A DNA stretch of 64,000 bases from an uncultured Chloroflexia bacterium (lineage in GTDB: Bacteria > Chloroflexota > Anaerolineae > B4-G1 > SLSP01): the NCBI GenBank assembly GCA_963751345.1, contig CAVVUS010000027.1:1-64000 (forward strand), given 5' to 3'. Both the position numbers and the translations under genes were made by a program. The notes under the pieces are model-generated. The model made no database searches, was not told where the DNA came from, and saw only the letters and a list, made by a program, of their open reading frames with translations. Positions 6,320-27,352 of the stretch are shown here, in pieces. How positions within the stretch are numbered: position 1 is the first letter of the stretch; the number at the start of each line of letters is the position of its first letter.

Positions 6320-7336
6320 GCCGCCCTTCTCCTGCTCCTGGCAGGCTGCGGCAACGAGCCGGGAGGCGGTGCCTACCTTCGTACCGCCGACGGCCGGCAC
6401 GACGTCGGGGGCCGCGAGCTTTATCTCGCGCCCCACCTACGTCGTCACCCGCGACACGCTCACCGAGCAGATCGTGGCGCGCGGCGAACTGGGGCGGCGC
6501 AGCAGGAGACGCTGCTCTTCCCGATGGGTGGCGTCATCAAGGCCGTCTACGTAGAGCCGGGGGCGCAGGTGCAGGCGGGCACGGTGCTGGCCGAGCTCAA
6601 CGCGCTGAGCGTCGAGGAGACGCTGCTGCAGCGGACGTCGAGCCTGGCGATCGCGAAGCTGGAGCTGGCGCGCGTCGAGGCGCGTGTGCCGAACACGGCG
6701 ACGCTCGTGCTTACCTCGACGCTGGGCATCGACCTGGCCGAGGCGCGGGAGCGGGTGAGCGTGGCTGAGGCGCTCCAGGCCAACGCCCAGGCGCAGTATG
6801 ACGCCACGGTGCTCAAGGCACCCTTCGACGGCACGGTGGTCAGCTTCAACAAACAGCAGGGCGGCTCGGTGGGCGCCTATGAGACGGTGGGCGTGCTCGC
6901 CGACCTCAGCAAGGTCGAGGTGCAGGCGATGCTGCCCAACACGGATCGCGACCGCGTGAGCGAGGGGATGGCGGCCGAGATCCGGCTCGACGGCTACGCC
7001 GGGACGACGTTCAGCGGCGTCGTGGCCGGGCTGGCCCAAGATGCGGTCGTCTCGCAGGGGGCGCTGATGTTCCCGATGACGATCACGCTCGACGAGGGGC
7101 AGACGCTCCCGCCCGTCGTCCAGGTCGGGGCTGACGTCACGATCGTGGGCGAGGTCCACGCGGACGTGCCGTGGGTGCCCTCCAACGCGCTGGTGATGGT
7201 GGGCGACCAGGCGTACGTCGACGTGCTGCGCTCAAACCGGATCGAGCGCGTCCCCGTGACGCTGGGCATCACCGACAACCAACGCGTCGAGATCACGGGC
7301 GGCCTGCAGGCGGGCGAGACGATCGTGTTTCCGTAA
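6235..7336 (+). CDS. RND/ABC efflux membrane-fusion (adaptor) lipoprotein (indels)
   Basis: AGGAG RBS; LLLLAGC lipobox; lipoyl-like GGVIKAVYVEPGAQVQAG; LKAPFDGTV; ends VEITGGLQAGETIVFP. Confidence 0.75.
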
Positions 7337-7536
7337 GTGAAGCGCGTCAGAACAGCCGGTTTCCCCATCTTCTCGGTGCTCTCCACCGTCACATTGACCG
7401 CGGTGGAGAGCACGCTATACTGACGCGCCTACAGACCTTCTGAGGCGAGGCGGGCGAAGCTGGAGCACTCCGGTTCGGCGCCCTCACAAGGTGGCATCCA
7501 TCGACTCTCGTCGCAACAATAGGGTTGGGGTAATCC

Positions 7537-10150: not shown

Positions 10151-11307
10151 AAGTAAGACCCTCGCGGGGTAAGACCGGTATTGGGCAAGCACCCGATCGC
10201 AGACCAGAATACGCCCCAAAGGTCTCGACGTGGGTATTGTTCGCCCTGGCCGCGCTGCTGACGCTCGCGCTCGGCGCCAACCGGCTGGGCGCGGCGTGGT
10301 GGAACAACCTCGGGGCGCGCCGGCTCAACGAAGCGCAGATAGCGCCGGACTTGACGGAGGCCCAGCGGCGCACGGCGGCCACCGAGGCCGGGCAGGCACT
10401 GGCACAGTCGCTGCGCCTCGACCCCGGCTACGGCAAGGCCTACACCAACCTGGGGAACGTCTACACCTTCTTTGACGATCCACAGGCTGCGGCGCAGGCG
10501 CTACAGGCGGCCGCGCGCTCCACGCCCGACGATTGGCGCGCCCAGTTCTTCCTGGGCCAGGCGCTGGCCACGCTGGGCGAAGAGACTGAGGCCCGCGCCG
10601 CGTGGCACCGGTCAGCCGGCGCGTCGGCCTACTTCGTGAAGCAGGCCGACGACCTGCGGGCAACGGATCCGGAGGGGTCGCAGCTAAGCGCCGAGCGCGC
10701 CGTCGCCGCCGATCCCGCCTCGCCCGGCGGCTACCTGGCGTTGGGCAAGACGCTCAGCGCGCAGAAAGCCTACACCGACGCCCTCGAGATCTACCAAACC
10801 GCGGTAGCGCAGGTGACGGACACGTCCGACCCGGGCCTGGCCGCGTGCTACTACGAGATGGGCACGCTGCTCCACCGCCAATTCGGCGAAGCCGCGGAAG
10901 CCACGTCGGCGCTGGTGCGGGCTGCGGCGCTGCAGCCAAAGGACGAGGCGACGCTGCTGGAGCTGGCCACGATCTCGCAGGAGCGCGGCGCGTGCTACGA
11001 GGCCGAGACGTGGCTGGCGCCGCTGCTCGAGACGCCGTCGTCGCCCGCCAAGGGCGCGCAGGCAAGCGCGCTCGTCGGGCGCTGCTTCCTGGCCCAGGAG
11101 CGCCCCGAGACTGCCGTCCCCTACTTCGAGCGGGCCGTCCGCGACGATGCTACCTCGGTGAGCAACTGGCTCCTGCTGGGGCAAGCAAACCGGGCGGCGG
11201 GTCACGTCGACGCCGCCATCGACGCCTACGAGCAGGTGCTGGTCCTCAAGCCGGATAACGCCGCCGCCCAGAAGGCACTCGACGAGTTGCGAGGGGATAG
11301 CCCGTGA
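10147..11307 (+). CDS. Membrane-anchored TPR protein
   Basis: GTGA overlap with the preceding stop; N-terminal hydrophobic helix; TPR-like repeats (AYTNLGNVY, YYEMG, WLLLGQA, AIDAYEQVLVLKPDN). Confidence 0.82.
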   Translation: MKVRPSRGKTGIGQAPDRRPEYAPKVSTWVLFALAALLTLALGANRLGAAWWNNLGARRLNEAQIAPDLTEAQRRTAATEAGQALAQSLRLDPGYGKAYTNLGNVYTFFDDPQAAAQALQAAARSTPDDWRAQFFLGQALATLGEETEARAAWHRSAGASAYFVKQADDLRATDPEGSQLSAERAVAADPASPGGYLALGKTLSAQKAYTDALEIYQTAVAQVTDTSDPGLAACYYEMGTLLHRQFGEAAEATSALVRAAALQPKDEATLLELATISQERGACYEAETWLAPLLETPSSPAKGAQASALVGRCFLAQERPETAVPYFERAVRDDATSVSNWLLLGQANRAAGHVDAAIDAYEQVLVLKPDNAAAQKALDELRGDSP

Positions 11308-11318
11308 ACCGCAGGTTC

Positions 11319-11440
11319 GGTAGCATCCGATTCATCGGTCTCCGGGCCAGCTGAACTCAGAACGATTGAAACCGCTACGGCAGCAGAAGCCCACCGTTGG
11401 ACCCAAGACCGGGTTCGTAGTAACCGATTCATCGGTTCCG
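11319..11440. repeat. Pair of GTAG...CCGATTCATCGG REP-like palindromes
   Basis: CCGATTCATCGG occurs twice, each preceded by GTAG, in the intergenic space. Confidence 0.55.
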
Positions 11441-11472
11441 GCTCCGCTCGCTCAACCAGACGAGGGTCCGTA

Positions 11473-12780
11473 GTGATGTCCGCTGCACCCGCGCGCCGGC
11501 TCAAACTCGTCGCCATCGTCCAATTCGTGGGCGTCGCGCTCTGCATTCCCGCGCTGATCCTGCCGGACTTCCTCCCCTCCTGGTCGATCACCGCCTCGTT
11601 GATCGGGCTCGCCGTCGTGCCGGCCTTCGGCCTCATCGTCGCGCGGCGTCCGTTCGCGCGCACGCCGGTGGATCTCCCCCTCGGCCTGCTGCTCATCGCC
11701 ACGGGCGCTAACCTGCTGGCCACGGCCAACCGCGCCGTGACACTCCCGCACGTCCTTAAGACATTGGCCGGGATTGCGCTCTTCTACGCCATCGTGGGGC
11801 TGCTGCGGGAGACCGGCTGGACCCGCCTGGCAGGGTGGGCTGTGTGCTTGCTGGGGCTTGCGCTGGTCCCGCTCGTGCTCTTTGGCGTACAATGGAGCGG
11901 CACGAAGTTCTCGTGGCTACCGTGGGTGCCGGACGACGTCGTGCCGCGACTCTACCACCCCTTCTGGAAACCTGAGGACTACGGGGGCTTCAATCCCAAC
12001 ATGGCGGGCGGGGCGCTGGCGATGGTGCTGCCCGTGCCGTTGGCTTACGCCCTCCTCGGGCGAGGCAAAGGCTCGGTGTGGAGCCTTGGGCTGCGGTTGC
12101 TCGCCGGCCTCGTCACCGCGCTGATGGGCCTGACGCTGCTCCTGACCCAGTCACGCGGCGCCATGCTCGCCGTCCTCGTCGCCATCGCCGCGATGCTGGC
12201 GGCCCGCGATTGGCGCTGGTTCGTCATCGCGGGCGTGCTGCTGATAGCCGGCGCCGCGATCTTCCAGGCGGCGGGCTTTGAGGCCTCTCCGGCGTGGGAC
12301 CTGACATCGGATGCGGACAGCGCGATCAACAGCGCCGCGGGGAGGGTCGAGCTCTGGTCGCGTGCCTGGGCGATGGCACAGGACTTCCCCTTCACCGGCA
12401 TTGGGATGGGGATGACCAATGAGATTGCGCCGCTGCGGTACCCCACCTTCAGGATATCGGTCACCACCTCGACCGATCACGCCCACAGCCTGTTCTTCGC
12501 GACCGCCGCCGAGATGGGCTTCCCGGGCCTCATCGGTCTGCTGGCCTTCCTCATCGGGCTCCTGCCGTTCGCCTGGCGATCGTGCCGCCGCCTGATCCGC
12601 AGGCCCGGAGGGGTTGCATCGCTCCCGCTCGCGCTGGGCACGCTCGGTTCGGCCGTCGCCTTCTGCGTGCACGGGCTCACCGATGACGTGACCTTCTACG
12701 CCAAAGCCCACATTATCGCGTGGGGTCTGTTCGGGGTGGCGGTGGGCGTGGGCGTGCTCGCGGAGAGAAGGGAGAGGTGA
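11473..12780 (+). CDS. O-antigen ligase / Wzy_C family membrane protein
   Basis: Polytopic; FNPN, LTQSRGA, GRVELW, PFTGIGMG, HAHS...AEMGFPG. Confidence 0.85.
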   Translation: MMSAAPARRLKLVAIVQFVGVALCIPALILPDFLPSWSITASLIGLAVVPAFGLIVARRPFARTPVDLPLGLLLIATGANLLATANRAVTLPHVLKTLAGIALFYAIVGLLRETGWTRLAGWAVCLLGLALVPLVLFGVQWSGTKFSWLPWVPDDVVPRLYHPFWKPEDYGGFNPNMAGGALAMVLPVPLAYALLGRGKGSVWSLGLRLLAGLVTALMGLTLLLTQSRGAMLAVLVAIAAMLAARDWRWFVIAGVLLIAGAAIFQAAGFEASPAWDLTSDADSAINSAAGRVELWSRAWAMAQDFPFTGIGMGMTNEIAPLRYPTFRISVTTSTDHAHSLFFATAAEMGFPGLIGLLAFLIGLLPFAWRSCRRLIRRPGGVASLPLALGTLGSAVAFCVHGLTDDVTFYAKAHIIAWGLFGVAVGVGVLAERRER

Positions 12781-14449
12781 ACGGGGATACGCAAGTGGAC
12801 GCTTCTGCCGTCGCGCATCCCAGGAATTGGTCGCAGTGGGTGGTCGTAGGCGTCGTGCTCCTCACCTTCGCCCTGGTCGTGCCGGGTCTGGGCCATAAGG
12901 GCCTCTGGATCGATGAGGCGGACAGCGTCTATTTCGCACAGCATACGTGGCCCAGCCTGCTCTGGGGGCTCTGCGACCCCCACCCGCCCGGCTACTACGC
13001 GCTGCTAAAGATATTCGTCACGCTGGGTGGGGCCAGTGAGTTCGTCGTTCGGTTCCCCTCTGCACTGGCGGCCACGTTGGCCGTTGCCGCGCTGGCGCGG
13101 CTCGTGCGTGAGCTCACTCATGGAACCGGTGAGCCGGCTACTACGGCCCTATATCGCCGGGGCGCGCGGGGTCGCCGGTCGGCGACTGCGGACCTGTGGC
13201 TCCCTGCGGCGCTGCTGGCCACGGCACCCCTTCACGTCTGGTATGCGCAGGAGGCGCGGATGTATGCACTGGTGGCCCTGCTGGGGCTGGGGGCCGCGAT
13301 CCTCGCCGTGCGATTGGCCCGCCGGTGGCGTTGGGGTGATGCCCTCGGCTACGCGGCCGTGGCAGCCCTGGCCCTGCTCACGGATCAGTCGGCGCTTCCC
13401 ATCCTGCTGGGCGTGAATGTCCTATGGATCCTCTACACCATAGGTACTGGCTCGAGATTCCTGCGGGCTTCAAAGACGTTTCAAGCGAACCGGCTTGTTC
13501 CAAGGAATCGCACGAGCGCCTTGGCGCTCTGGCTACTGCTCCAGGTCGCCGCGGGCGCCGCCTTCTGGCTTTGGTCGCGCCGCGCCGACACCTTCGCGCA
13601 GGTGAGCGCAGGCACCCTCTACCCCCTCACCATGGCGCGATTGTCGCTGGAGCAGGTGCTCGCGGCGGCCCGCGACCATCTGCCGCTGGTCATTGCAGCC
13701 CTTGGCATCGCGGCTCTCGTGCTGGTGGCTGCCATCATCGTCGCGCTGCGGCAGATGCGGCACGCAGGCCCGGGCGCAGTGCCGGGCAGGAATCCGTCAC
13801 TGGTACGTCACAGCATTGTCGTCTGGGGCATCCTGATCCTCTTCACCCTGGGCACGGTAGCCTCCGTTCGTGCCCAGACTCTACACAGTGAAACGGCTCG
13901 CAGTGGGATTGTTGCCCTACGGGCTGCTGGCTGCGGCGTGGGCAATAGGGCGTCTACGCCGCAAGCGCCTGGTGTGGGGACTCGCCCTCGGCCTGTCGCT
14001 CGGCGGCAAGCCTCTTCAACGCGTGGGGGGTGCCGAAGACGCCGTGGCGCGAGGTCGTGGCGACTATCGACGCGCGCCTCCGGCCCGGTGACGTCGTGTG
14101 GGTCGACGGCCTGGCAATGCCGGTCTTCGACTACTACCATCATAGCGCCGGCACCCTCCATCCCTGGCAGGTCGGCGACCTGGACGCCATCGGCGCCTCG
14201 CTGCCGGGCGCGGGCCGGCTGTGGCTGATCGCCGAGGCGAACCGCTATCGCGACCTCTTCGACTTCTACCCCGCGCTCAGCGATGAAGCGCCGGCCTGGT
14301 CGGGCAGCTGGCCCGGCATTGAGGTCAGGGCCTACGACGCTGCGCGGGTGCCCGAAGGCGCGCTGGCCCCACAATCGGCCGTCCCCGAGTGGGCGCTCAA
14401 CTGGCCCTCCCCTCTCGACGAAGCCTGCCGCGCACCCCTGGGAAACTAG
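12777..14449 (+). CDS. GT-C (PMT/GT39-like) membrane glycosyltransferase (indels near 13870 and 14005)
   Basis: LWIDEADS, DPHPPGYY, EFVVRFPSA, YAQEARMYAL. Confidence 0.8.
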
Positions 14450-14524
14450 CCGCTTGCGCCGTACGCTACCCCCGCTATACTCCCCTTGATTCCAGAAGTG
14501 AGCTTGGCGGCAAGAAAGCGTCGT

Positions 14525-15713
14525 ATGCAAACAGATCCCGATACAGCACCATCTGCTCCTCACCCACGCCGGATGACTATCTGGCGCTCTGGTGGCACGG
14601 CGAGGTGCGGCTGCCCGAGGAGGCGCTGATCGCGTGGGCGCGTAGCCAGCGCCTGCTGCCGCTGCTGGGGTGGCGCGCCCAACAGGAAGGATGGGAGCTG
14701 CCGCAGTCGCTCACCGAGGCCATCCGGCGCACGCGGATGACCGTCGCCATCGGCCAGGTGCTGGCCGACCGCCAGCTCAAGGCCCTGGGCGAGATCGCGC
14801 AGGAGCTCGATATCCCCATCGTGCTCGTCAAAGGCGCGGCAGCCGCCGAAGCCTACCCCGAGCCGTGGATGCGCCCCTACGGCGACATCGATCTGCTGAT
14901 CGCCGAGGCCGATGGTGGTCGCCTGTTGGACAGCGCTCAAGCGCCGGGGCTACACCTATGCCGAATCGGCCGAAGGCCATCGCGCCTGGCATTTCATGCC
15001 GCTCGTCTCGCAGGAACCGGGCGTCAGGCTCGAAATCCATACGGCTATGGCTCGCGAACGAGGCCGCGAGCTGTTCACGGTCGACCAGTGGCGCGACGAT
15101 CTCAGACCGAGCCGGACCTACGCAGGGCTGCTCTGCCCGGGTTCCGTCGATCACGTCCTCTACCTGATCCATCACGCCCTGATCCATCATGCGTCTGATG
15201 ATGGGCGTGCAGCCCTTTGTCGATGTGGGACTCTGGACGCAATCCTGGGCCTCGGGCGATTGGGATGCGCTCCAGAGCGCGACTGCCTATGCGGAGATGG
15301 ACAACGCCGTGGGCCTGGCGCTGGCCCTGACCGCGGTGGCTGTGGGACCGCCCACAGCCGGGAGGCGATCGGTTCCCCCAACCGCCGGATGCGCTGCTCA
15401 GCCGGGCCAAGGCGACCGTAGCAGGAACTGCAAGCGCCGGGCAGCCTCCCCCACGTCTGGCGGGATATGCCGAGCTCGGAGCAGGGCGGCATCTTCAGCT
15501 ACATCAGGACGATCCTGCTGGGCGACCCGGCGCAACTTCGGGAATTGTCGTTCAAAGAACGGCTCAGATACCATATCCAGCGCCCAGGACAGCTCTTCCA
15601 CAACCACGGCACCTCGCTTTGGCAACTGGTCAAAGGGCGACCCGGCATCCAGGGCCGCTTGGCGAGCCCAGCGCGACCTGCAGACGTGGCTGCGAGGGAA
15701 GAAGAACGTTTGA
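14525..15713 (+). CDS. Uncharacterised nucleotidyltransferase family protein (NTP_transf_5-like; indels; start uncertain)
   Basis: IPIVLVKGAA...YPEPWMRPYGDIDLLI; LEIH; LYLIHHALIH. Confidence 0.8.
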
Positions 15714-15765
15714 ACGTTTGCACGTTCAAACTGCTTGCCCTGAGCGCAGCCCAGGGTTCAAACGC
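15705..15765 (+). repeat. Composite of octamer array and repeat family A
   Basis: aacgtttg aacgtttg cacgttca aac followed by GCCCTGAGCGCAGCCCAGGGTTC. Confidence 0.75.
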
Positions 15766-15779
15766 TTAGGAGGCACCCA

Positions 15780-16723
15780 ATGCGTATTCTCGTCACCGGC
15801 GGCGCAGGCTTTATCGGATCCCACGTCGTCGACGCCTACGTGGCGGCGGGCCACCAAGTAGCCATCGTCGATAACCTCGTCAGCGGTCGCCGCGAGAACC
15901 TCAACCCAAACGCCACCTTCTATGAGGTCGACATCCGCGACGCGGAGCCGTTGGCCGAGGTCTTCGAGGCTGGAGCAACCCGACGTCGTCAACCACCACG
16001 CGGCGCAGATCGACGTGGGCCGCTCCGTGGCCGATCCGCTCTACGACGCCGACGTCAACATCCTGGGAACGCTCAATCTGCTGGAGTGTGCCCGCGCCCA
16101 GCAGGTACGCACCGGCAAGCAGGTCCACGTCATCAGCATCTCCAGCGCCGCGGTCTACGGCACGCCCGACTATCTCCCCGTCGACGAGGCCCACCCCGTC
16201 CGGCCGCTCAGCCCCTACGGCGCGAGCAAGGCCGCCGTCGAGATCTATCTCAACGTCTATCGCGAGACGCACGGACTCAAGACCACCATCCTGCGCTATG
16301 CCAACGTCTATGGCCCGCGCCAGGACCCCCACGGGGAGGCCGGGGTCGTCTCGATCTTCGTGGGGAAGATGCTCGAAGGCGCGGCGCCCGTGATCAACGG
16401 GACCGGCGAGCAGACGCGCGACTTCGTCTACGTGGGCGACTGCGCCCGGGCGAACGTCTTGGCTGCCGAGACGGCGAGACGCGGGTCCCGGACCCTACAA
16501 CATCGGCACCGGGGAGGAGACCACAATCAATCAGCTTGCCGCGCTGATCCAGGCGGTGTCGGGCTACGCCGGTGAGATCCGCCACGGCCCCGAGCGGCTG
16601 GGCGACATCCTCCGCAACGTCTCGGACAGCTCCAAAGCGCGCGAGGCGCTGGGTTGGGCGCCGGAAGTTGGTCTTCGTGAGGGTCTGGCGCGGACGGTCG
16701 CCTATTTCCGAGATCAGGGATAG
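15780..16723 (+). CDS. NAD-dependent epimerase/dehydratase (GalE-like; indels)
   Basis: AGGAGG RBS; MRILVTGGAGFIGSH, SSAAVYG, YGASK, RYANVYGPRQDP, TRDFVYVGD, YNIGTG. Confidence 0.9.
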
Positions 16724-16764
16724 CGAAATAGTACCAAAGTACCCCAAAATGGTCCGGGTGGCGC

Positions 16765-16794
16765 TTGCGCATTACGCACAGATCATGCTATAAT
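16765..16794 (+). promoter_or_regulatory. Promoter of the RiPP-like operon
   Basis: TTGCGC-18 nt-TATAAT with extended -10 TG; GGAGG RBS downstream. Confidence 0.6.
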
Positions 16795-16824
16795 GGTTAA
16801 AATCGCCCAGGGAGGGGACGACCA

Positions 16825-17119
16825 TTGCCGAATCTCACTGACACCTATCAACAAGACCCATCGATTGTCTCCCGTGAAATCGCCGGCGAGGTGATTCTCG
16901 TCCCCATCCGCAACAACGTGGGCGACCTCGAGAGCATCTACACCCTGAACGAGACCGCGGCGCGCATCTGGGCGTTGCTGGACGGCGAGCATACGCTTGC
17001 GGATGTGCGGGATGCGATCGTCGCCGAGTTCGAGGTCGAGGCGGACGAGGCAGAGGCGGATCTGATGGAGCTTGGTTGAGCGGCTAGAGGACGTCGGGGC
17101 CATCCGGCCTGCGTCCTGA
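16825..17119 (+). CDS. PqqD-family RiPP recognition element (RRE) protein (1-bp indel near 17075)
   Basis: IVSREIAGEVILVP...IYTLNETAARIWALLDG...AEFEV...AEADL; corrected C-terminus ELVERLEDVGAIRPAS. Confidence 0.92.
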
Positions 17120-17203
17120 CGAAATCGCCGTGTTGTCGGTGGGACACCGATGTTGTTCATTATACGTACTAACGGCAGGCACGCTGATAGTGTTTGGAGC
17201 CAT

Positions 17204-18352
17204 ATGGACTGTGACGGCGGGACCGAACTAGCATACAGGGAGTTCAGCAAGCACCTCCGCGAAAGGGTTGCGGGGAAGCGTATTCCCCTGTCTGGTTCAC
17301 TCGAACTCACGTTCCGGTGCAATCTGCAGATGCGTGCACTGCTATCTCGATGGACAACACACACCCTCACCCGACCAGCACGAACTTACCACGTCTGAGA
17401 TCACCGACATCATCGACCAGATTGTGGCCGAAGGGTGTCTGTGGTTGCTCCTGACCGGCGGTGAGCCACTGGTCCGCCCGGACTGGAAGGAAATCTATCT
17501 CTACGCCAAGCGCAAGGGCCTGATCGTCACGCTGTTCACCAACGGCACACTGTTGACGCCGGAGGATGCGGATTTTCTCGCTGAGTGGCGACCGTTTGTG
17601 GTAGAGATCTCGCTCTATGGAGCGACGCAGGAGACGTACGAGCGGATCACGGGCGTACCGGGTCGTACGAGAAGTGCATGCGGGGTATCCAGTTGCTGGT
17701 CGATCGCGGCGTGCCACTGAAACTCAAGACGCCGTTGATGACGCTCAACAAGCACGAGTTGGCGGCCTTACAGCAGTTTGCAGAAGGACAGGGTGCCGAA
17801 TTCAGGTATGATCCTATTCTTAAGCCAGAACTAGATGGAGCTCAAGGACCGCTGAAATACAGGCTCTCTCCAGCGGAAGTCGTTGATGTTGAGGTCGAGG
17901 ACCCCGTTCGGTCTTCGCGATGGCCCGAGAGATTTGAACTATTGCACGGTCGACGCGACATCGGCCCTGAGCTTTTTGTGTGCGGAGCTGGTAAGCAGTC
18001 TTTTCACATCGATGCATACGGTATGTTGAGCCTGTGCATTGTTGCTCGAACACCTTCATATAGCTTGCGACTAGGTCGATTCCACGAAGCGTGGTCGGGG
18101 TTTCTTGCAGATGTTCGGCGCGCCCAGCACAGCCGGGAACACCAATGCGCACAGTGTGATCTACGATCATTGTGTGCACAGTGTCCTGCTGTCGCCGTGC
18201 TCGAGACCGGTGATCCCGAACAGCCGGTGAGCTATCTATGCGAAGTGACTCACTTGCGCGCAGAAGCGTTTATGACAAAGAGCCATGACGCTCAGGGGCA
18301 AGCCCTATCTTACGGAAGTCCACACAGGCCTCTAAGTTACCTAAGGAGATGA
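17204..18352 (+). CDS. Radical SAM / SPASM-domain peptide maturase (indels near 17328 and 17660)
   Basis: LELTFRCNLxCVHCY (CxxxCxxC across the indel), LTGGEP, FTNG, ISLYG; C-terminal CGAG...C...CAQCDLRSLCAQCP...C. Confidence 0.92.
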
Positions 18353-18357
18353 AAGCC

Positions 18358-18519
18358 ATGTCCGACACCCAAACCAGCATCGTTCGGAATCCATATGTCA
18401 AGCCTATCGTGAGCGAAGTGAAGCTCGTCGCCGAGGAAGCTGTGTTCGTAAACTGCCAGGAAAGCGGCGGCCTTAGCACATGTGGCTCAAGCATTGACCT
18501 CTGTGGTGAGCATGTATAA
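18358..18519 (+). CDS. Putative RiPP precursor, 53 aa: MSDTQTSIVRNPYVKPIVSEVKLVAEEAVFVNCQESGGLSTCGSSIDLCGEHV
   Basis: AAGGAG RBS 9 nt upstream; directly follows the rSAM stop; YxxP leader motif; Cys33, Cys42 and Cys49 in a Gly/Ser-rich tail; too short for the ORF track. Confidence 0.85.
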   Translation: MSDTQTSIVRNPYVKPIVSEVKLVAEEAVFVNCQESGGLSTCGSSIDLCGEHV

Positions 18520-18752
18520 GGTATGTAGTTGAGCCAGCCCGAGCCGATGGAGCAGTGATTTACCTCACCCATGTCTGCTGCCGTGATGCGACAGTCGTAT
18601 TTCAGCCAGAGATGAGTCTACTCTTCTCCTGAGATCGACGCCGTTTCACTCAGGCGGCCTATAGTGATGTCGGTGGGGTCTAGCTTCAGCGAATATCCGG
18701 CTGTTCGGAGCATTCACGACTGCGTAGCAGATTCCCTGGGGGATTCGTCGTC

Positions 18753-19631
18753 ATGGCTCAACAGCCGGATATGGTAACTACTCTTCGATATGACATAGCG
18801 GGCATCGTGATTGGGTTGGACGCCTCAAGTCCAATACCTCAATCACCCATTGCTCGTATATATGCCCCCTTTACCACCGACCGGGTGCCTAACCTGGCTC
18901 TTAAGGTTCACTATGATGTGCACCCGACGCTCAACATTTGTAATCAGGTGTTTGAGACTGGGAAAGTATGGAGAATATACCGTGTGGGTAGTCACCTGGT
19001 ATTTTCCGTCGGTCCCCCCAAAGAAGCCCCCTACCAGATTAGCATTTTCCAGAAAGACTTCCGCGAGGGAGAAATATACTATCCTGACCCGACCATACAA
19101 CCAATGAAGTCGCGGTTCCCATTGGCACCGCCGCTGGGGCAGTTGATTGTGATCGGGCGCCTTAGCCAAGGATACGGTACGCTACTGCACGCTTGCGGTG
19201 TCAAAGTTGATGGTAGAGGACTCCTGTTTGTGGGAACGGACAACGCTGGCAAGACATCCATAGGACGTCTTTGGGAACAGCACGCAGGTGCGACCACTCT
19301 AGGTGATGACCAGATCATTGTTCGCAAGCAAGGGCAAGAGTATTGGATGTATAGCACACCCTGGCGAGCTAATGGTTCCTTTGTGGGCTCGGCCCCAGTC
19401 GAAGCAGTCTACGTTATCCACCATGGCATTGCTAACAAGATCACTCCGCTCTCGCCCGTGCAAGCTACTGCACAACTGGTGAAACGTTCCTTCTCAGCCA
19501 TGTGGTCTCCTGAAGGGATGAGCTTTACAGTGGAGATGTTGAGCGAAATTGGGATAGAAATGCCCGTCTACGACTATGCTTTTGTGCCTGATAGGAGTGC
19601 GGTCGACTTCGTCCAATGTCTGAGCGCCTGA
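18753..19631 (+). CDS. HPr-kinase-related P-loop protein (ScmC/HprK-related-like)
   Basis: LLHACGV...LLFVGTDNAGKTS...LGDDQIIVR...YSTPW. Confidence 0.85.
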   Translation: MAQQPDMVTTLRYDIAGIVIGLDASSPIPQSPIARIYAPFTTDRVPNLALKVHYDVHPTLNICNQVFETGKVWRIYRVGSHLVFSVGPPKEAPYQISIFQKDFREGEIYYPDPTIQPMKSRFPLAPPLGQLIVIGRLSQGYGTLLHACGVKVDGRGLLFVGTDNAGKTSIGRLWEQHAGATTLGDDQIIVRKQGQEYWMYSTPWRANGSFVGSAPVEAVYVIHHGIANKITPLSPVQATAQLVKRSFSAMWSPEGMSFTVEMLSEIGIEMPVYDYAFVPDRSAVDFVQCLSA

Positions 19632-20106
19632 TCGACCACAGTTACCTTCGCGCAATAGCAGGCGCAGTCCTGGAGCAGCGCACAGCCTTTCGCTTTGAGG
19701 CTCACGGCAACAGCATGTCACCTTTCCTCTGGGATGGCGACGTCATCACTGTGCAACCACTAGACGCTGTCAGCGGGCAAGTCAGAGCAGGTGATATCGT
19801 CTTCTGCGACCTGGGAAATGATAGGCTGGTCGTACACCGAGTCAAGCAAGTCATACGGAGCCAGCAGGACATTGCTTCGTGATCCAAGGCGATGCTGTTC
19901 GCCACCCAGATGGAAAAGTCACTGACGCACCAATACTCGGCAAAGTAGTTCGGATACAGCGAAATGGCAAGGAAATCGAGACGGCATCTCGATTACAACG
20001 CCTTGGCGGCTTGCTGTGGCTGTGGACTTCTCCCCTCAGTCAACGCCTATATCGACTTGCCCAGCGGGCTATGCGCGTAATGCAGCGCGATTCAAAGCTG
20101 GCATAG
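19616..20106 (+). CDS. S24/S26 signal-peptidase-like serine peptidase without an N-terminal TM segment (indel near 19875)
   Basis: GNSMSPFLWDGD, GDIV, VVHRV, IQGDA..PDG, ILGKV. Confidence 0.85.
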
Positions 20107-20212
20107 CAGAGAACAGCTGTCCGGATTACCCATAGATCCCACAGCAGATAGCTGGCAACCACAGTTCCCATGATACTATAGTATAGGAAACGCTGAGCGG
20201 TCAGGTGAGAAG

Positions 20213-23200
20213 ATGACTAAACGAGGATTTCGATGCGATTGCATCTATAGGGCTCTCATTAGTGTTATACGTAGTCGGTGTCAGGCTGACTCTAGCTGCC
20301 CCGCCTTCCTGGAAGCCTTCAGTTGCGGATACTGCCGCCGTCACTAGCTCAAAGCCTGATGTCAAGCAGCCAATCCAGGGCAGTACTATCATGGTCCTTC
20401 AAAGACTCCGCGGCAGGTGTTCGGCTAATCGGCAGTCGGCGGACCGCATTGTCCTGGAGTTCGTGACCGGTGATTACACGATCACGAACGTTTCGACGGA
20501 AGAAGGCACCTGTCAGGAAATCATGATTCGGGTTACCAGACAGCTGCCGATCCAGGGCATCCTTCCCTCCCTGCTACCCAGGCGGCCGTTGGTGTACCCG
20601 TCGCTTCAGACCCTTCAGTGCGTGTGGTCAGCTCACAATCCAGATTGCTCCCCGGCGCCTACGATCTGTGTCCCGAGGCAAGCCCCATCATTGATACGAA
20701 CCTGACGGGCGAGAGCCTTACACAAGTAGCTGGCTGGACCAGGGTTCGCGATGTTGCTGCTTACGCTATTGACGCATTCGCTCCTGCCGATCTCGTGGAG
20801 CTCTCTTCGACCGGCTTCATCCGAAATCAGCGGATTGCTGAGCTGCTCATCCATCCCGCTCAGTATAATGCCGTCTCTGGCCAGGTACGACTTGCGACCC
20901 ATCTCGTGATAGAGGTCCAATTGGGCACAGCGGCAGAGGACGAACAAGGCACTTCGGATACTCGCATTCAGCAGGATCTGCCCACCCTTCGAAAGCGTCC
21001 TTAGCGGCTATCTCGTGAACTACGAGGCAGCAAAAGCCTGGCGCCAGCAGCCGCCGTTGGGATGCCTTCGCAGATTCCTTCCGATCTTCATATAGAAACG
21101 ACATCTTCTAGCACGCCGATCTACCGTATCCAGATCAAGGAGTCTGGCGTATACAGCCTTACCTATGGTGAGCTTTCAGCTGCAGACCCCTCTGTCAACC
21201 TTACTACTGTCGACCCACAAAACTTTCATCTTACCAACCAAGGGCAGGAAGTCGCAATCCAAGTGACTGGAGAAAGCGACGGATCTTTTGATTTGGGGGA
21301 TACAATCTACTTCTTCGGACAAGCCTTAGATACGGTATATGCGGATGAGAACACGTACTGGTTGACCTGGAATGGTCAACCCGGCCAGCGAATAACAACT
21401 TCTGATGGGCAACCGACAGGAGGGGAAACAACGCCAGCGTTCTTCTTCACCGATGATGTGATAGAGCAGGACAAACGCTACGTGAGCGATTACCCAAGTG
21501 AAGACGGGGACCATTGGTTCTGGAGTATATACTTCAGCGTCGGCTCTCCAATTACCAAGTCACATATATTCGATGTCCTTGACACCGTGTCAGGGGTACC
21601 TACAGCTACGCTTGGCGGGTTGCTGACAGGTTTTGGCGCCGACCCATACCAATCGGTGGAAGTACGTCTTAACCAACACTGGGTGTATAGCGCCACTTGG
21701 CCATCAGCAAAAGATCACGTGTTTGAGGTTATCGTACCAAATTCTTACTTAGCGAGCGGGACTAACAGAATCGACGTGACAGCCGGGATCGGGAATCTCA
21801 CAGACGGTCTTCTCGTCAACCGGTTTTACCTATCGCACGCGATGCCCTACATCGCTCATCAGAATGCCCTGTGGTTTGATGGCGATAAGACCGGTGTATG
21901 GGACTATGAGCTGACGGGATTTACTACAAATACCGTGAGAATCTTCGATATCACCAATCCAAGACAAGCCATAGAGATCGCTGGAGCGCAAGTTCAACAG
22001 AATGCCACTACTTACAACCTTACGATCGAGCAGACTATCCAGGGAGAGCATCACTACCTTGCACTATCTCCTAGCAGTGTAAAATCGCCCCTGTCGGTGG
22101 AACGTGATGCCGTATCCGATCTACACAATACCCTCAACCGCGCAGACTATCTGGTTATCAGCCCCAGCGATTTCTATACTGCAGCTCAGACGCTAGCTGT
22201 TTACCGCGCATCTCAGGGGCTGCAGACAATGTCGGTTGATGTGCAGGACATTTACGATGAATTCAACTACGGCATTCCCGATGCCGAAGCTATCCATCAA
22301 TTCATCTCTTACACATATGCCTCTTGGACCCAACCTGTGCCATCCTATGTCGTCTTACTTGGCGACGGCAACTTCGATCCGAAAGACAACTTGGGACTTG
22401 GCGAAAAAAGCTATATCCCCCCATATCTTGCTGATGTCGATCCCTGGATCAGGGAAACGGCCGCTGACAATCGCTACGTATGCGTGAGCGGTAATGATAC
22501 ACTGCCTGACCTGTTCATTGGACGGCTTCCCGCTAACAGCTTGGACGAGGCAAATGCGCTTGTCAGCAAAGTCATTAGCTATGAGCAAACACCACCAAGT
22601 GGTAGCTGGGCATCCCAGATGCTATTCATCGCAGACAATGCCGACTCTGCCGGTGATTTTGCTGCTGACTCCGATATCGTTGCCGATCACTATGTGCCTT
22701 CCTCTTATAGTGTCGAGAAGGTGTACTACGGCATCACGCACTTAACGCCAGAGTCTGCACGTACTGCTATTACTTCGTCCATTAACTCGGGCAAGTTGAT
22801 CGTGAACTATGCCGGGCACGGGAGCGCTCAGCTTTGGGCTACCGAACAACTACTCACAACTGGGATTCTCGCCACGTTGACGAATACTGACGAGCTGCCG
22901 TTTGTTGCCCCTATGACCTGCTACGAAGGCTATTTCATCTGGCCGGGCCACCCCTCAATGGCAGAGACCTTTGTCCGCCTCCCCACCACCGGTGCCATCG
23001 CCAGTTGGTCAGCCACCGGCCAAGGCCTCTCAGCTGGCCACGACTACCTCAACCACGGCCTCTTCGAGGCCCTCTTCCAAGAAGACATCACCGAACTCGG
23101 CCCAGCGACGACCTACGCCAAGCTCTACCTCGCCGCCAACACACCCTACTACCGCGACCTGCTCGACACCTACACGCTCTTCGGCGATCCGGCGACGCGG

Positions 23201-24037
23201 CTGAACGTCCTGCCCGTCGACGTGCAGATCGAGAAACAGACGCTAGGCGGGCAGACGGGGTTCACGTCTGGCCACCCCATCACCTACACGCTGAACTACG
23301 CCAACGCCGGCCCGGCCACTGCGCATCACGTGACGATCACCGATACGCTGCCTGCGGCCCTCAATGCAGTCTCCTGGACCTCCAGCGGCAGTGTGATCAC
23401 GGCGAGGGTCGGCAGCACGTACACCTGGGACGTCGAGGATCTGCCGGCGGGCACGGGCGGTGTGATCACGGTGACGGGAACCATCAACGAGGCCTACCAA
23501 GGATCGTTGTCCAACACGGCCGAGATCGCGACGACCTCCAGGGAGACCGATACCACCAACAACACCAGCCAGTTTGCCGTGCAGGTGGCCCCGATCACGA
23601 CCGACGTCAAAGTCACGGATCTGACGATTGAGGGGAGCTCCTCTTCTTCCTGGCTGCGGCCAGGCGATACGGTGACCTACACGCTCGCGTTCGAGAATAC
23701 AGGGCCCGACATCGCCCGCGACGTCGTCCTGACCGACATTCTTCCCACGCGTCTGACTCAGGCGACCTTCTCCGCCTCGGGTGTCGGCGCAACCCAGCAA
23801 GCTGGCACGCGCTTCGTCTGGGACATCTCGGACATGGCCCCCGGGGCTACGGGACAGATCGTCATCACGAGCGTCGTCGATCACGACCTGCATCGCGAGG
23901 CAATCACCAACACGGCCACGATCTCGACGTCGTCGGTTGACGAGTATGAACCCAACAACACGGCGAGCGTGACGGTGATGATAAGCCCCTACCAGATCTA
24001 CCTGCCCATCGCGCTGAGGAACGTCGCAGGTAGGTAG
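20213..24037 (+). CDS. Secreted C25 (gingipain/PorU-like) cysteine peptidase with propeptide, two DUF11-like Ig domains and a C-terminal YLPIALR motif (indels in the 5' part)
   Basis: VQDIYDEFNYG, YVVLLGDG, IGRLP, catalytic NYAGHG and MTCYEGYF, YTLFGDP; DUF11-like ITYTLNYANAGP and VTYTLAFENTGP. Confidence 0.88.
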
Positions 24038-24077
24038 GACACGATCTCGGGCACTCCTACCCCATTCGTAACCATAC

Positions 24078-24110
24078 AAAAACGCCCCGGCCTTCTGCCG
24101 GGGCGTTTTT
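24078..24110. terminator. Bidirectional intrinsic terminator
   Basis: AAAAA-CGCCCCGGC-cttct-GCCGGGGCG-TTTTT between the convergent C25 gene and tRNA. Confidence 0.9.
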
Positions 24111-24115
24111 GGTCA

Positions 24116-24186
24116 CTGGGGGCGGAGGATTTGAACCCCCACATACGGATTCAGAGTCCGCTGTCCTACCGTTAGACGAGCCCCCA
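24116..24186 (-). tRNA. tRNA-Gln (anticodon CTG); CCA not encoded
   Basis: Reverse complement TGGGGGC...GCGGA-CT-CTG-AA-TCCGT...GGTTCAAATCC...GCCCCCAG folds as a cloverleaf. Confidence 0.95.
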
Positions 24187-24262
24187 ATATCGCAACGAGG
24201 CGTAGTATACCATGCTCCATAAAATCCGCAAGACACGCATCGCCGGGGCAGCCGTGTGCCTC

Positions 24263-24304
24263 ACAAACAAGGAGCCCAAGGGCACATAGGTACCCTTGGG
24301 CTCC
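24263..24304 (-). terminator. Intrinsic terminator after the YtxH-like gene
   Basis: GGAGCCCAAGGG/CCCTTGGGCTCC stem followed by TTGTTTGT on the minus strand. Confidence 0.75.
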
Positions 24305-24324
24305 GGTTTCACCCCAACGACGCC

Positions 24325-24678
24325 CTAGGCCGCCTCAGCCTCCTCCGTCATCGTCTCGACGGCGGCCTCCGCCTCCTCGGCCTTCTCCTTGCCCATCGAC
24401 TCAATCTGCGACTGTAGCTCCTGGGCCCGGCTCTGGATCTCCTTCGTGGCTTCCTCGAGCTTCCCGCGCGCGTCGGTCAGAAGCGCCTCCGCCTTCTCTC
24501 GCGCTTCCTCTGCCTTCTCCGACGCCTGCTCGCTGAGCTCGATCGACTTCTGACGAATCTGGTCGCGTGTCTCCTCGCCGGACTGCGGCGCAAACAGCAG
24601 ACCTACGGCCGCACCCATCAGAGCCCCGAAGAAGAACCCAACGACAAACGTGCCGAACTCACTTTCCTGATTGGACAT
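24325..24678 (-). CDS. YtxH domain protein
   Basis: FVVGFFFGALMGAAVGLLFAPQSGEETR plus coiled coil; GGAGG RBS. Confidence 0.9.
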   Translation of the reverse strand: MSNQESEFGTFVVGFFFGALMGAAVGLLFAPQSGEETRDQIRQKSIELSEQASEKAEEAREKAEALLTDARGKLEEATKEIQSRAQELQSQIESMGKEKAEEAEAAVETMTEEAEAA

Positions 24679-25213
24679 TTTGGTTACCTCCACTTGTTTT
24701 GGTTTTTGTAGGTGTCACGGAACGAGGCCGCATGGCCTTCGCCACGCCCATGGTGTTACTCACGACCTTCTGAACGGCCGAGGTAAAGCCGGCAAACTTG
24801 ATGATGGGCGTGACGAGGTTGTGGCTGACAAACTCAGTCGTCCCCCTCACGGTCGAGGCCGTGTCGTTCACAGAATGCAACAACGGCTGGATCTCATCGC
24901 GCAGGACCTGGATCAATACCTGGATCTGGAAGAGCAACAGGATCATCGCCAGACCGATCAAGAACGTCTCCACGGCAACAAAGACGATGGCGATATCGCG
25001 CACGACCTGTGTAGCGGTCGGGAACTTGGCCATCAGGACGATGGCCGCGACCAAGATGACCAAGAAGCCAACCGCGCCCCCGATGATGTACATCTGGGTG
25101 CGCTTGGCGGCCCGCTCTTCCGCGGTCAAGGGACCCGAGGTCTTGGGGGATTCGGCCTGAACTGGACCCCCGCCAGGGGTGGCCGAACCAGCCGATGTTG
25201 TGTCAGACTCCAT
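24659..25213 (-). CDS. Hypothetical membrane protein (DUF948/YtxG-like)
   Basis: Two TM helices; overlaps the ytxH-like gene; GGAGG RBS. Confidence 0.6.
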   Translation of the reverse strand: MESDTTSAGSATPGGGPVQAESPKTSGPLTAEERAAKRTQMYIIGGAVGFLVILVAAIVLMAKFPTATQVVRDIAIVFVAVETFLIGLAMILLLFQIQVLIQVLRDEIQPLLHSVNDTASTVRGTTEFVSHNLVTPIIKFAGFTSAVQKVVSNTMGVAKAMRPRSVTPTKTKTSGGNQNVQSGK

Positions 25214-25297
25214 GGTTACCTCCTCGCATGACGTGACATGCGTATTGTACCACGCAGTCAGGGCCGATACAAGAGAAATGTGATGATAAAAGAGACC

Positions 25298-27352
25298 CTA
25301 TTTGTCAAAAGGTTGTGATCGGCGCGCCCCAGAGACGCCATCCACATCCATCTCCCGCCAATACCCGCCCGGGGCATCGTCATTGGCCCACTCCAGACCC
25401 GGTAACAGGACCGTGATCCCATCACCGGCCTCGTCCAGACGGAACCAATAGCGCCGTTCGTACATCACATAAGAGCTCAGCGAGGGATCGTCGGCAAAGA
25501 AGACACCTACATTGAGCAACTCGGCGTCGGAGAGTGCCCCAATGTCTGCGATCTGCGCCTTGGCGGCGCCTTCGAAGGTCACCCCGTCCGGCGTGATCAG
25601 CCACTGCACGGGGTAGACCTGCCCTCGGACCGACGCATCGTCGAGCAGGAACGTCTCGCCGGCGCCGTTGTTCCAGACGTAGGCGTACACGTAGGGGCTG
25701 TCGGTCGGGTTTGTGATCTGCAACGCCGGGGCAAAGGATGTCCCCCGGTGAAATGCATAGGCATCCAGTAGGTCGTCATACGCCCCCGTGTTGAGCCGCC
25801 ATACCTCACGCCAGCGGGCAAGATCCCAGAACTCCCCTCGGATAACAAAGGAGAGCTTGTCGTAGTAGGCCGACAGGTTGGGATCGGCGATACGGTTCTC
25901 CCCCGTCTCCAGCGTGAGCAAGTACCCCTCGGGCGGGCGCCGCCCGAAGTGACCGATCTGCCAGTTCGGGTCGGTCACCGGCAGCCTCGCCAGGAGCGGA
26001 TCGCCGAGCGCCAGGAGATCCACGACGTGGACTTCCGGCCCGGCGTTGAAGCCATAGAACCCCACCGAGCCCCTGACCACGACGGCAGGGCCGGCCTCAC
26101 GCGCCTCACGCCCCTCCTCGGCCCAATCGTGATCGGGCAGCGCAACGTGGCGCCGGAACGCCTCGAGCAGCCCCGTGTTATGGTAGTAGTTGGCCCGCTC
26201 GTCGGTGATGCTGCGCCCGCGCACCCACACGTCCGGATCGGTGTCGGCGCTCTTGGCGCCGGTCGCGCGCAGAGGGGTATACGGCGAACTCAACCCGATG
26301 ACCACCAAGCACAAGGCAAGTCCCGCCTGCGCTAAGACCTTTGGGGTTCCAGCTCGAGCTTGCTCGGGCCAAAACCCCAAAGGTCTTCGACAGTCGCCAC
26401 TGCGTCATCGCCACGATCACGACAGCCTGCAGCAGCGGGGCGGCGAGAAAGCGCCCGCTCATGAAGTCCCCACCCACGCGGACTACGTACAGGACGTAGA
26501 GCAGCACACCTCCCACCAGCGGCAGCTTGCGCCGGTCCGCCTGCAGCAATCGGCAACACAATCGCGAGGCCGATGACAACCAGCGTGATGGGATCCACCT
26601 TGAGGGAGTTCAGGAGATACATCAGCCCCTCGTGGTAGATCGCCGCGGGGCGTATCAGCCCGGCGTTGAGCTTCGCCATCGCCGTGTTGGGCACCGGCGA
26701 GCCGTAGTAGAGAAGCGCGAAGAGCTCCCAGGCGACAAGCGGCAGAAAGCCCAGGGCGCCCATCGCCAAGGCCTTGCGGCCCCGCACCTCGAGGAAGGCG
26801 AAGCCGAGCGCAGGCAGCATCAGCAGGCCGATATCCAGCCGGTTCAACATCCCCAGGGCTGTCAGCAGCGACAGCCAGAAGAAGCGCCGCACAGTAGGGG
26901 GACGCTTGAGATAGACCAGCAGGAATCCGGCCAGGATCACGTACGTGAGGGGGTTCTCCAGCCCCGACGTGGCGTAGTCGATGAAAGCCTTGGAGAGTGA
27001 GAGGATCCCCACCGCCAGCATCGCCATCCCGGATGTCCGTGCGCCACGCGTCGCGATCAGCGACCACCGCCAGGAACGAAAGCGCGATCGACACGCCCAG
27101 ACTGGTGAAGTAGATCTCACCGGTCAGCGCGTAGAAGCCGGAGAGCAGCAGCATCCACAGCGGGTGCGTGTAGACCTGCACGCGCTCGTCGACGTTCCAC
27201 GTCAGACCGTACCCGTGGATGAAATTGTCCACCGTTCTGAAGGTGATATAGGCGTCATCGGACAGCCAGGCGTTCAGAACCACCAGCGTCAGGAAGCCCG
27301 CCAGCAGTAGGCCGATGACGACTGTCGCAGAAGGTCGATCTCTCCGCGTCAA
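25298..27352 (-). CDS. GT-C membrane glycosyltransferase, AftB-like (indels)
   Basis: SDDAYITFRTVDN..GYGLTWNVDERVQVYTHPLW, TSGLENPL, PNTAMAK, GGDFMSGRF, DPLLARLP, IGHFGR. Confidence 0.75.

Follow-up and report, generated by a model that had tools for sequence, protein, structure and literature searches.

Which product, if any, is made by five adjoining genes in the DNA of an uncultured Chloroflexia bacterium? The genes occupy 16.8-20.1 kb of a stretch of 64,000 nucleotides (contig CAVVUS010000027.1 of assembly GCA_963751345.1, positions 1 to 64,000), hereafter referred to as the window. They encode a PqqD-family recognition element (RRE) for peptides that are synthesized by ribosomes and modified after translation (RiPPs), a radical S-adenosylmethionine (rSAM) enzyme with a SPASM domain, a small peptide, an HPr-kinase-like P-loop protein and a signal-peptidase-like protein of the S24/S26 type, and three of them are broken by single-base indels. 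The initial annotation had proposed a candidate RiPP pathway in which the product is cross-linked by the rSAM enzyme and phosphorylated, and the S24/S26 protein takes off its leader. This proposal fits everything that could be tested, except that the C-terminal Ser conserved in the wider family is absent from the window's peptide. The locus is probably a working copy, garbled by indels that arose in assembly, of a widespread and unnamed RiPP cassette that combines a tool set as found for linear polyphosphorylated peptides (LPPs) and lasso peptides with an rSAM/SPASM enzyme.

The five genes are co-oriented and lie where the initial annotation had placed them:

16825-17119, plus strand: discrete RRE of the PqqD family (PF05402, 54.6 bits, E 1.4e-14)
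17204-18352, plus strand: radical SAM/SPASM maturase (PF04055, E 1.1e-16; TIGR04085, 33 bits with a cutoff of 27)
18349-18519, plus strand: precursor peptide of 56 aa, or 53 aa if the ATG at 18358 is used, matched by the hidden Markov model (HMM) of the precursor family
18753-19631, plus strand: P-loop protein with HPr-kinase/phosphoenolpyruvate carboxykinase (PEPCK) fold, ScmC family PF27840, 292 aa, intact
19616-20106, plus strand: soluble archaeal/SipW-type signal-peptidase-like (S24/S26) protein, putative leader peptidase (PF00717, E 2.9e-7)

The annotated families of all five were borne out by Pfam, NCBIfam, profile or structure-model matches. The RRE is 97.6% identical to its orthologue in a sister genome of the same genus (G002), which is an intact protein of 99 aa. 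As annotated, the maturase has a CxxxCxxC motif and a SPASM tail. The motif reads CNLRCVHC only by comparison with the sister genome, as the motif itself is split by the first indel of this gene. Its orthologues in four further loci are intact open reading frames (ORFs) of 368-391 aa, counted from start to stop or from stop to stop (391 aa in L012, open frames of 368-381 aa in L013, L014 and L015). The stop codon of the maturase gene overlaps the first ATG of the peptide gene at 18349 (ATGA). At either length, the peptide has the three Cys noted in the initial annotation, and its ORF matched no family in the libraries searched.

The assignment of the P-loop protein as HprK-like required more sensitive comparisons, with only weak or no matches in the local Pfam search and NCBIfam matches far below the cutoffs (HprK_rel_B, E 0.01; ScmC, E 0.04). 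A profile of 13 kinase sequences has HPr kinase/phosphorylase as its top match in the PDB (2qmh, 1jb1; E 7e-5), over a stretch with the pattern His...GxxGxGKS...DD. The AlphaFold2 model of the protein, with a predicted local distance difference test score (pLDDT) of 87.3 and a predicted template modeling score (pTM) of 0.87, resembles ATP-dependent PEPCKs (E 2.5e-6) as well as HprK/P chains (1ko7, E 5.4e-5; 1kkl; 3tqf). In precomputed Pfam assignments, this protein and the five matches of its word search all fall into PF27840, which the Atlas calls ScmC. Among the protein's relatives, His146 and Lys167 never vary and Asp185/Asp186 hardly do, and all four are present in the window's protein.

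The 3' end of the kinase gene overlaps the start of the peptidase gene by 16 nt. TIGR02228 is the best NCBIfam model for the peptidase. The window's fragments score 27.6 bits against it, and orthologues exceed its cutoff of 51.85 (54.9, 58.4 and 62.3 bits). In 36 stand-alone S24/S26 members, the columns for G-x-S-M-x-P, H-R and G-D show little or no variation, and the pieces of the window's protein jointly carry all of them. A hydrophobic segment was looked for in this protein and none was found, in line with the annotated soluble form.

The most informative part of the cassette is the peptide, which belongs to a well-defined family. An HMM built from 48 peptides found a match in 81 of 87 loci collected around kinase homologues, always directly upstream of the kinase gene and between it and the rSAM gene; a conserved peptide in homologous loci, on which the initial annotation had staked its proposal, is thus present. 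The 78 distinct precursors share the consensus ..[KR]xYxKPx[IVL]xx[IV]xLxPEEAVLxxCK...C...C...GS. Three Cys are found in 70 of them and the CK pair in 74, while the distance from Tyr to the first Cys is exactly 20 residues in 70. The last Cys lies 5-6 residues from the C-terminus in 64 of the 70 three-Cys precursors, and the last residue is Ser in 69 of the 78, Thr in 6 and another residue in 3. Such tight conservation of the Tyr-Cys spacing, the three Cys and the terminal Ser leads us to expect a defined product. The window's peptide is the only match of this HMM in the window (E 1.7e-11), and retains the leader (YVKPIV), the 20-residue Tyr-Cys spacing and all three Cys.

The cassette is far more widespread than a single contig. 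A profile search with the kinase among 1.84 billion representatives returned 35,546 proteins at E <= 0.001, 13,737 at 1e-10 and 2,624 at 1e-30, of which the two looser sets may take in other HprK-like proteins. Within the window's genus, 7 of 21 other genomes carry the kinase-like gene. Among the seven loci from the genus and family, the rSAM gene is present in six, and PqqD, peptide, kinase and peptidase genes occur together in five, the other two being cut by contig ends. A kinase-derived peptide pattern from six closer sequences retrieved 279 relatives in a scan of species representatives. The best 80 of these were fetched and, according to their record titles, come from more than 10 phyla, including Chloroflexota, Acidobacteriota, Thermodesulfobacteriota, Omnitrophota, WOR-3, Aminicenantes, Nitrospirota, Planctomycetota, Verrucomicrobiota and Myxococcota.

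For an overview of the genetic context, six-frame ORFs of 87 loci (L009-L095) were searched with jackhmmer, and three duplicate loci were dropped afterwards. Clusters of neighboring ORFs were used only if annotated by Pfam, as antisense shadow ORFs of high-GC genes had polluted the clustering. The kinase served as bait for every locus, and co-occurrence therefore describes the neighbors of the kinase only: PqqD was found in 76 of the 87, rSAM in 80, S24 in 74 and the nucleotidyltransferase family PF14907 in 31. In the 57 loci with full context, i. e. at least 2.5 kb upstream and at least 1.5 kb downstream of the kinase gene, PqqD and rSAM genes are each present in 55, S24 and precursor genes each in 52 and PF14907 in 20. 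All five core parts are found in 46 of these loci, and the gene order in five-part loci is PqqD-rSAM-peptide-kinase-S24.

Beyond this core, the loci vary. Fusions of S24 and PF14907 of 544-694 aa occur in several of them. The S24 protein of L033 (7863-8891) continues into a GNAT acetyltransferase-like domain at its C-terminus (residues 215-318), and L025, L041, L066, L070 and L084 have S24 ORFs of similar length (336-353 aa). A second, divergent cassette is seen in a Chloroflexota contig (L037, 12957-14700), where a further kinase-like gene is accompanied by the first part of an rSAM gene and by a weak precursor match (E 0.0018) whose leader has WHKP rather than YxKP. In L012, an intact locus from the same genus, a gene for an ABC exporter of 596 aa lies directly upstream of PqqD (8748-10538). 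ABC_membrane plus ABC_tran genes are present in 15 other loci.

Two further genes and a possible promoter adjoin the window's cassette:

14486-15713, plus strand: nucleotidyltransferase of the NTP_transf_5 family (PF14907), likely accessory enzyme, frameshifted, located by tblastn with the intact 405-aa orthologue of the sister genome
16765-16794, plus strand: possible extended -10 promoter, TTGCGC-18 nt-TGcTATAAT, read from the sequence
20213-24037, plus strand: giant surface protein with C25 peptidase and DUF11 domains (PF01364, 306 bits; DUF11, 130 bits)

The five parts listed in the initial annotation are all present; the upstream nucleotidyltransferase and the linked C25/DUF11 protein had been missed. 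The orthologue of the former in the sister genome matches PF14907 with 117.7 bits (E 8.6e-34). The gene lies 1.1 kb upstream of the cassette with an epimerase gene in between. As for the annotated promoter of the operon's own, the site is readable and identical in the sister genome, but was not called by a consensus scan of 16400-21200. In this region, three promoter-like sites compare with a shuffle mean of 2.4, and three terminator-like sites with a mean of 3.0, none of the latter lying after the peptide gene. An attenuator between the peptide and kinase genes was also considered, and there is no case for it: the 249-nt stretch across the gap (18512-18760) has a folding z of -1.86, a stability matched by 8 of 200 shuffles.

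These data suggest the following pathway. The RRE would bind the precursor (53-56 aa) at its YxKPx[IV] leader, as judged from the families of the two proteins. The rSAM/SPASM enzyme would then cross-link the core through Cys, most likely by thioethers. Subsequently, the kinase would phosphorylate a Ser, which in the wider family is most likely the conserved C-terminal Ser/Thr, as for the lasso peptide kinases PadeK and PsmK. In the window's clade, from which the terminal Ser is gone, the site would probably be a Ser near the start of the core, similar to Ser3 of the LPPs. The nucleotidyltransferase may decorate the phosphate in the manner of PsmN. Finally, the soluble S24/S26B peptidase would remove the leader after the Ala at Tyr+15 (..EEA|V..). 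This cleavage is predicted because the LPP precursors have Glu at +14 and Thr at +15 from the Tyr, and here Glu and Ala occupy the same positions. The LPP register was taken from the motif printed in PMC13381572. In the window, the predicted core would be VFVNCQESGGLSTCGSSIDLCGEHV.

The first step of this pathway was also modeled, using the intact RRE of the sister genome and the window's peptide, both supplied as alignments. The pair scored 0.50, the best of three controls 0.25. In the runs, at least 86% of the contacts agree and the partner pLDDT is at least 53. The mark that was set for such models is reached by 58 of 80 solved complexes and by 2 of 110 mismatched pairs; at scores of 0.60 or below, only 7 of those 80 solved complexes reach it, yet both mismatches do. 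RRE-leader complexes have solved structures, and the result may reflect likeness to these. Hence, the modeling lends weak support to the pairing.

A first alternative concerns the kinase step, as in the window's clade the kinase-fold protein may not phosphorylate the peptide at all. The product would then be cross-linked and trimmed only, or the protein would have another ATP-dependent role. When 85 kinases are placed in a quick maximum-likelihood tree, those of the window, G002, G003 and G012, the four with a peptide ending in neither Ser nor Thr, form one clade on long branches, with a support of 99 in the Shimodaira-Hasegawa-like approximate likelihood ratio test (SH-aLRT). Their peptides end in Val, Leu, Glu and Leu, respectively, and their P-loop reads GTDxxGK[TS] in place of GxSGAGKS. 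Because all four group together, the tree indicates that the loss of the terminal Ser is one evolutionary event. Still, the His, the Lys and the Asp-Asp pair are kept in all four kinases, and the gene is intact even in the indel-ridden window. Moreover, a Ser occurs in three of the four peptides at Tyr+20, the position of the first Cys in the family, and the window's peptide, with Cys at +20, has a Ser at +23. Both positions are close to the phosphorylated Ser of the LPPs at Tyr+18, which raises the possibility that phosphorylation has shifted to the beginning of the core in this clade. A kinase-fold protein without activity on the peptide is thus regarded as rather unlikely, and phosphorylation is retained as part of the proposed pathway.

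The same clade bears on the rSAM step. The window has an rSAM gene and a peptide with three Cys, G002 and G012 have an rSAM gene and one Cys each, and in G003 the peptide has no Cys. In the latter, an rSAM gene was found neither in the locus nor, at E <= 1e-20, in the genome, which is 93% complete. Within the clade, the number of Cys therefore tracks the rSAM gene; outside of it, the relation is less clean.

A second alternative to a free-standing peptide product is that the peptide is part of a surface apparatus, i. e. that its purpose, its attachment site or its target of regulation is the C25/DUF11 protein or the polysaccharide of the locus. The C25 gene follows directly behind the S24 gene in the window. 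Of 84 loci, 36 have a C25 domain in the same orientation at a distance of up to about 7 kb, and in 13 loci, mostly from Acidobacteriota, this domain resides in one ORF with the S24 domain. In these fusions, the S24 domain is followed by a signal-peptide-like hydrophobic stretch and then by DUF11 repeats. Upstream of the cassette, the window has a polysaccharide-type locus (2497-14228) with the following genes:

2497-4389: Polysacc_synt_2
5303-6319: ParA/CbiA-like P-loop protein
6524-7336: HlyD-like protein
7537-11307: Wzz + AAA_31 + TPR protein of 1256 aa
11473-12780: Wzy_C
12720-14228: PMT_2 glycosyltransferase, frameshifted

Wzz/GNVR and Poly_export genes occur in other cassette loci, and LPP clusters are likewise found in capsule loci (PMC13381572). 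The polysaccharide setting and the coupling to C25/DUF11 proteins thus point to the cell surface.

Comparison with the sister genome adds a further link between these genes, as the locus is a mosaic. In blastn, the two are 93.8% identical over 11947-17785 and 86.4% identical over 21875-26139, with no alignment in between:

17785-21875, no strand assigned: low-GC strain-variable segment of 4.1 kb that does not align with the sister locus, defined by blastn and GC content

In both genomes, the GC content is 0.66 in the left flank, 0.53 in the segment and 0.59 in the right flank. The left break falls at about residue 193 of the rSAM enzyme, the end of the radical SAM core, and the segment runs from the SPASM half of this enzyme through the peptide, kinase and peptidase genes into the C25 gene, of whose product it encodes roughly the first 550 residues. 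Accordingly, the proteins of the two genomes are 97% identical for PqqD and the N-terminal part of the rSAM enzyme, 29% for the peptide, and 41-54% for the C-terminal half of the rSAM enzyme, for kinase and peptidase and for the beginning of the C25 protein; identity returns to 95% in part of the C25 C-terminal region. The window carries an atypical allele of the rSAM-kinase cassette in a strain-variable block.

That this block spans the N-terminal part of the C25 protein together with peptide, kinase and peptidase speaks for a role at the surface. Against it, 48 of the 84 loci lack a C25 domain within reach, which argues that C25 is not a core part, and a gene fusion or neighborhood is no proof of a physical or chemical link. 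A peptide dedicated to the surface apparatus is therefore possible but unlikely. A more specific version is more speculative still: the cross-linked, phospho-linked peptide could be one half of a strain-specific surface pair with the C25/DUF11 protein, with the block, which includes the substrate-facing SPASM half and the peptide core, being exchanged as a low-GC allele between close relatives. If this were true, the pattern of allelic swapping would be that expected of a recognition or conflict locus, serving for example kin discrimination or the evasion of phages or predators, as opposed to a housekeeping peptide or a classical antibiotic.

Some features of this neighborhood stand on their own. 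The C25/DUF11 proteins of the window (23980-24037, ..SPYQIYLPIALRN..) and of L011 (about 12800-12858, ..TPYRIYLPVMIRR) end similarly, and this shared ending may be a C-terminal sorting signal. Between the peptidase and C25 genes, L012 (3769-5526) and L011 (7722-9377) have an extra gene for a protein of 550-585 aa, with a hydrophobic C-terminal tail in the L012 copy, that is absent from the window. Further downstream, at 35243-39814, the window encodes a bacterial alpha-2-macroglobulin-like protein of 1523 aa (Big_5 x4, MG2, A2M_BRD, A2M).

A third alternative is that the frameshifts are real and nothing is made from what would be a decaying pseudogene array. Relative to the syntenic locus of the sister genome, four single-base indels break three genes of the cassette, that in the peptidase gene being read from the sequence. 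An extra base near 17071-17075 cuts the PqqD/RRE protein at residue 84. The rSAM enzyme is read in three frames, with a +1 shift near 17328, within CxxxCxxC, and a -1 shift near 17660. In the S24/S26 gene, a -1 shift lies near 19878. At least two more frame changes occur in the C25 gene at about 20995-21060, and one or two further ones are presumed near its start. Several of the indels lie outside homopolymer runs, and the window's peptide has lost the terminal Ser and the CK motif of the family, both of which would be in keeping with decay.

The pattern of the indels and the constraint on the proteins suggest otherwise. An alignment of 11947-17785 to positions 1-5839 of L009 (5.8 kb, 93.8% identity) has 20 gap runs, 17 of which are single-base. 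Such single-base gaps also affect the neighboring PMT_2, PF14907 and epimerase genes, and the sister assembly shows separate ones in different places. In 12 of the 17, the window has the additional base, and most of these do not lie in homopolymer runs, an odd profile if they are errors. Neither premature substitution stops nor larger deletions were seen inside the genes, and the single in-frame stop of the C25 gene lies between two compensating shifts. For three in-frame blocks, the ratio of nonsynonymous to synonymous polymorphism (pN/pS) between the window and the sister genome is low, with 0.094 for PqqD and 0.059 and 0.058 for two rSAM blocks. The catalytic residues of kinase and peptidase are retained. 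Finally, the assemblies of the window and the sister genome consist of few contigs (49 and about 30, respectively), and relatives in hundreds of contigs have intact ORFs. Because neighboring genes are broken alike, short-read relatives are intact and pN/pS is as low as 0.06-0.09, the indels in the cassette are very likely assembly errors as far as can be judged from such comparisons, and a dead array appears quite improbable.

Several observations nevertheless weigh against a working cassette for a cross-linked and phosphorylated peptide. Besides the position of several indels outside homopolymer runs and the kinase-baited sampling, which leaves the cassette's conservation seen only from the kinase's side, the window's peptide departs from its family: it has a C-terminal Val, CQ for CK and 9 residues between the first and second Cys where 13 are usual. 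As the peptide ends in Val, the kinase target proposed for the wider family is missing here. The precursor alignment has no conserved thioether acceptor residue in the core, and the rSAM chemistry is a guess for this reason. For the link between Cys and the rSAM gene, G003 is the one clean case. In L051, a three-Cys peptide occurs with no rSAM, PqqD or S24 gene within about 7 kb, and three other loci (L048, L074 and L095) have PqqD, peptide and kinase genes and no rSAM gene, though the sequence of each reaches less than 2 kb upstream of its kinase gene. Moreover, no exporter was found next to the window's cassette among the ORFs of the operon and the 10 large neighboring ORFs scanned.

If the working cassette is nonetheless accepted, its interest lies in its chemistry and its breadth. 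RiPP classes are defined by core chemistry, and this family would join rSAM/SPASM cross-linking with HprK-type (poly)phosphorylation and leader removal by a type I signal peptidase (SpI)-like enzyme, which have so far been studied apart. With 2,624 kinase cluster representatives at the strictest threshold, it is large and resides mostly in uncultured phyla. The window's clade provides natural variants, in which the first Cys is replaced by Ser, the terminal Ser is lost and one allele lacks both the rSAM gene and Cys, and these could reveal which enzyme reads which residue. The recurrent ties to C25/DUF11 proteins and polysaccharide genes bear on the purpose of LPP-like peptides, which the main text of PMC13381572 leaves open.

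How does the cassette relate to known systems? Two candidate identities can be dismissed: a lasso cluster remnant, since all operon genes at 16.8-24.0 kb are assigned to families other than the Asn-synthetase-like lasso cyclase or the transglutaminase-type B2 cysteine peptidase, and membership in SynChlorMet, for which the scores fall far short of the cutoffs (ScmC 13.2 of 125 bits, ScmD 28.7 of 100, ScmE 37 of 400, ScmF 58.9 of 400). The former agrees with the initial annotation, which had recorded neither a cyclase nor a B2-type peptidase; this holds for the operon genes, as no dedicated search of the whole window was made. SynChlorMet (Scm), which is known only through the NCBIfam models TIGR04248-TIGR04251, remains similar in its make-up, with the PqqD relative ScmD, the kinase-fold ScmC and the rSAM/SPASM proteins ScmE and ScmF, and the window's kinase shares the family PF27840 that bears the ScmC name. 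In contrast, the window has one rSAM gene rather than two. A literature search for 'SynChlorMet' returned no paper.

Despite the missing cyclase, there are parallels to lasso peptides. PadeK and ThcoK of paeninodin-type systems and PsmK of pseudomycoidin phosphorylate the conserved C-terminal Ser of the precursor, the kinases carry a His-Lys-Asp-Asp motif, and PsmN, annotated as a nucleotidyltransferase, adds a hexose to the phosphate (PMC9266682). The cassette has a kinase of the HprK type with the same motif and a nucleotidyltransferase partner. Its precursor leader contains YxxP, and among the best NCBIfam matches of its PqqD-type RRE are lasso PqqD models, none of which reaches its cutoff. 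The conserved terminal Ser/Thr of the wider precursor family fits the model of lasso kinases acting on a C-terminal Ser. In contrast, the leader here is presumably cut by the S24/S26 protein, and an rSAM-derived link would take the place of the macrolactam.

With the maturases of sacti- and ranthipeptides (SkfB, AlbA, PapB, QhpD), the window's rSAM enzyme shares CxxxCxxC, the full Cys pattern of the SPASM domain, an associated RRE and a Cys-containing peptide. By sequence, its closest solved relative is SkfB (E 1.2e-10). At the level of genes only, the combination of such an enzyme with a three-Cys peptide is the one that marks these classes. The similarity is distant, with no NCBIfam maturase model reaching its cutoff, and we know of no sacti- or ranthipeptide class with a kinase or an S24 peptidase.

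The closest parallel is provided by the LPPs of Bacillota, which are encoded by the genes LppA/B/K/S/N/D (Popov et al., Nat Commun 2026, PMC13381572). According to the main text, these clusters comprise a discrete RRE (LppB), an HprK-like kinase (LppK), a SipW-like peptidase (LppS), an uncharacterized NTP transferase (LppN) and an exporter. The precursor LppA has the leader motif YxxPxVLxHQxIxFETxxS. LppS, helped by the RRE, cuts the leader after Thr-1, and LppK adds several phosphates to Ser3 of the core (PMC13381572). The window matches this set in its discrete RRE, in its kinase as judged by profile, fold and the His-Lys-Asp-Asp residues, and in its predicted leader peptidase of the SipW/archaeal type with GxSMxP, HR and GD kept. 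The counterpart of LppN may be the PF14907 protein; the main text of PMC13381572 gives no Pfam accession for LppN. Both systems further lie within a polysaccharide locus and have YxxPx[V/I] in the leader, followed by Glu at Tyr+14 and, at the LppA cut site Tyr+15, by a small residue.

There are also differences from the LPPs. The remainder of the LppA leader motif (VLxHQxIxFETxxS) is absent here, which places the cassette outside a class defined by that motif and a linear product, and no MsbA-like exporter adjoins the cassette among the ORFs scanned. The LPPs are described as restricted to Bacillota (PMC13381572), whereas the hosts here are Chloroflexota, Acidobacteriota and many other phyla. 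Above all, the cassette has an rSAM/SPASM enzyme and a Cys-bearing core, and neither 'radical' nor 'SPASM' occurs in the main text of PMC13381572. No paper was found in literature searches for a cluster joining an HPr kinase with radical SAM, PqqD, SPASM or signal peptidase. The statement of the initial annotation that no characterized product of this type is known thus holds for the rSAM form, which that main text does not treat. Its companion statement, that similar gene sets are known only from bioinformatics, has been overtaken by the characterization of the LPPs in 2026. As far as the literature searches reach, the rSAM-bearing family is uncharacterized, and its core of RRE, kinase, SpI-type peptidase and, possibly, NTP transferase has a characterized relative in the LPPs.

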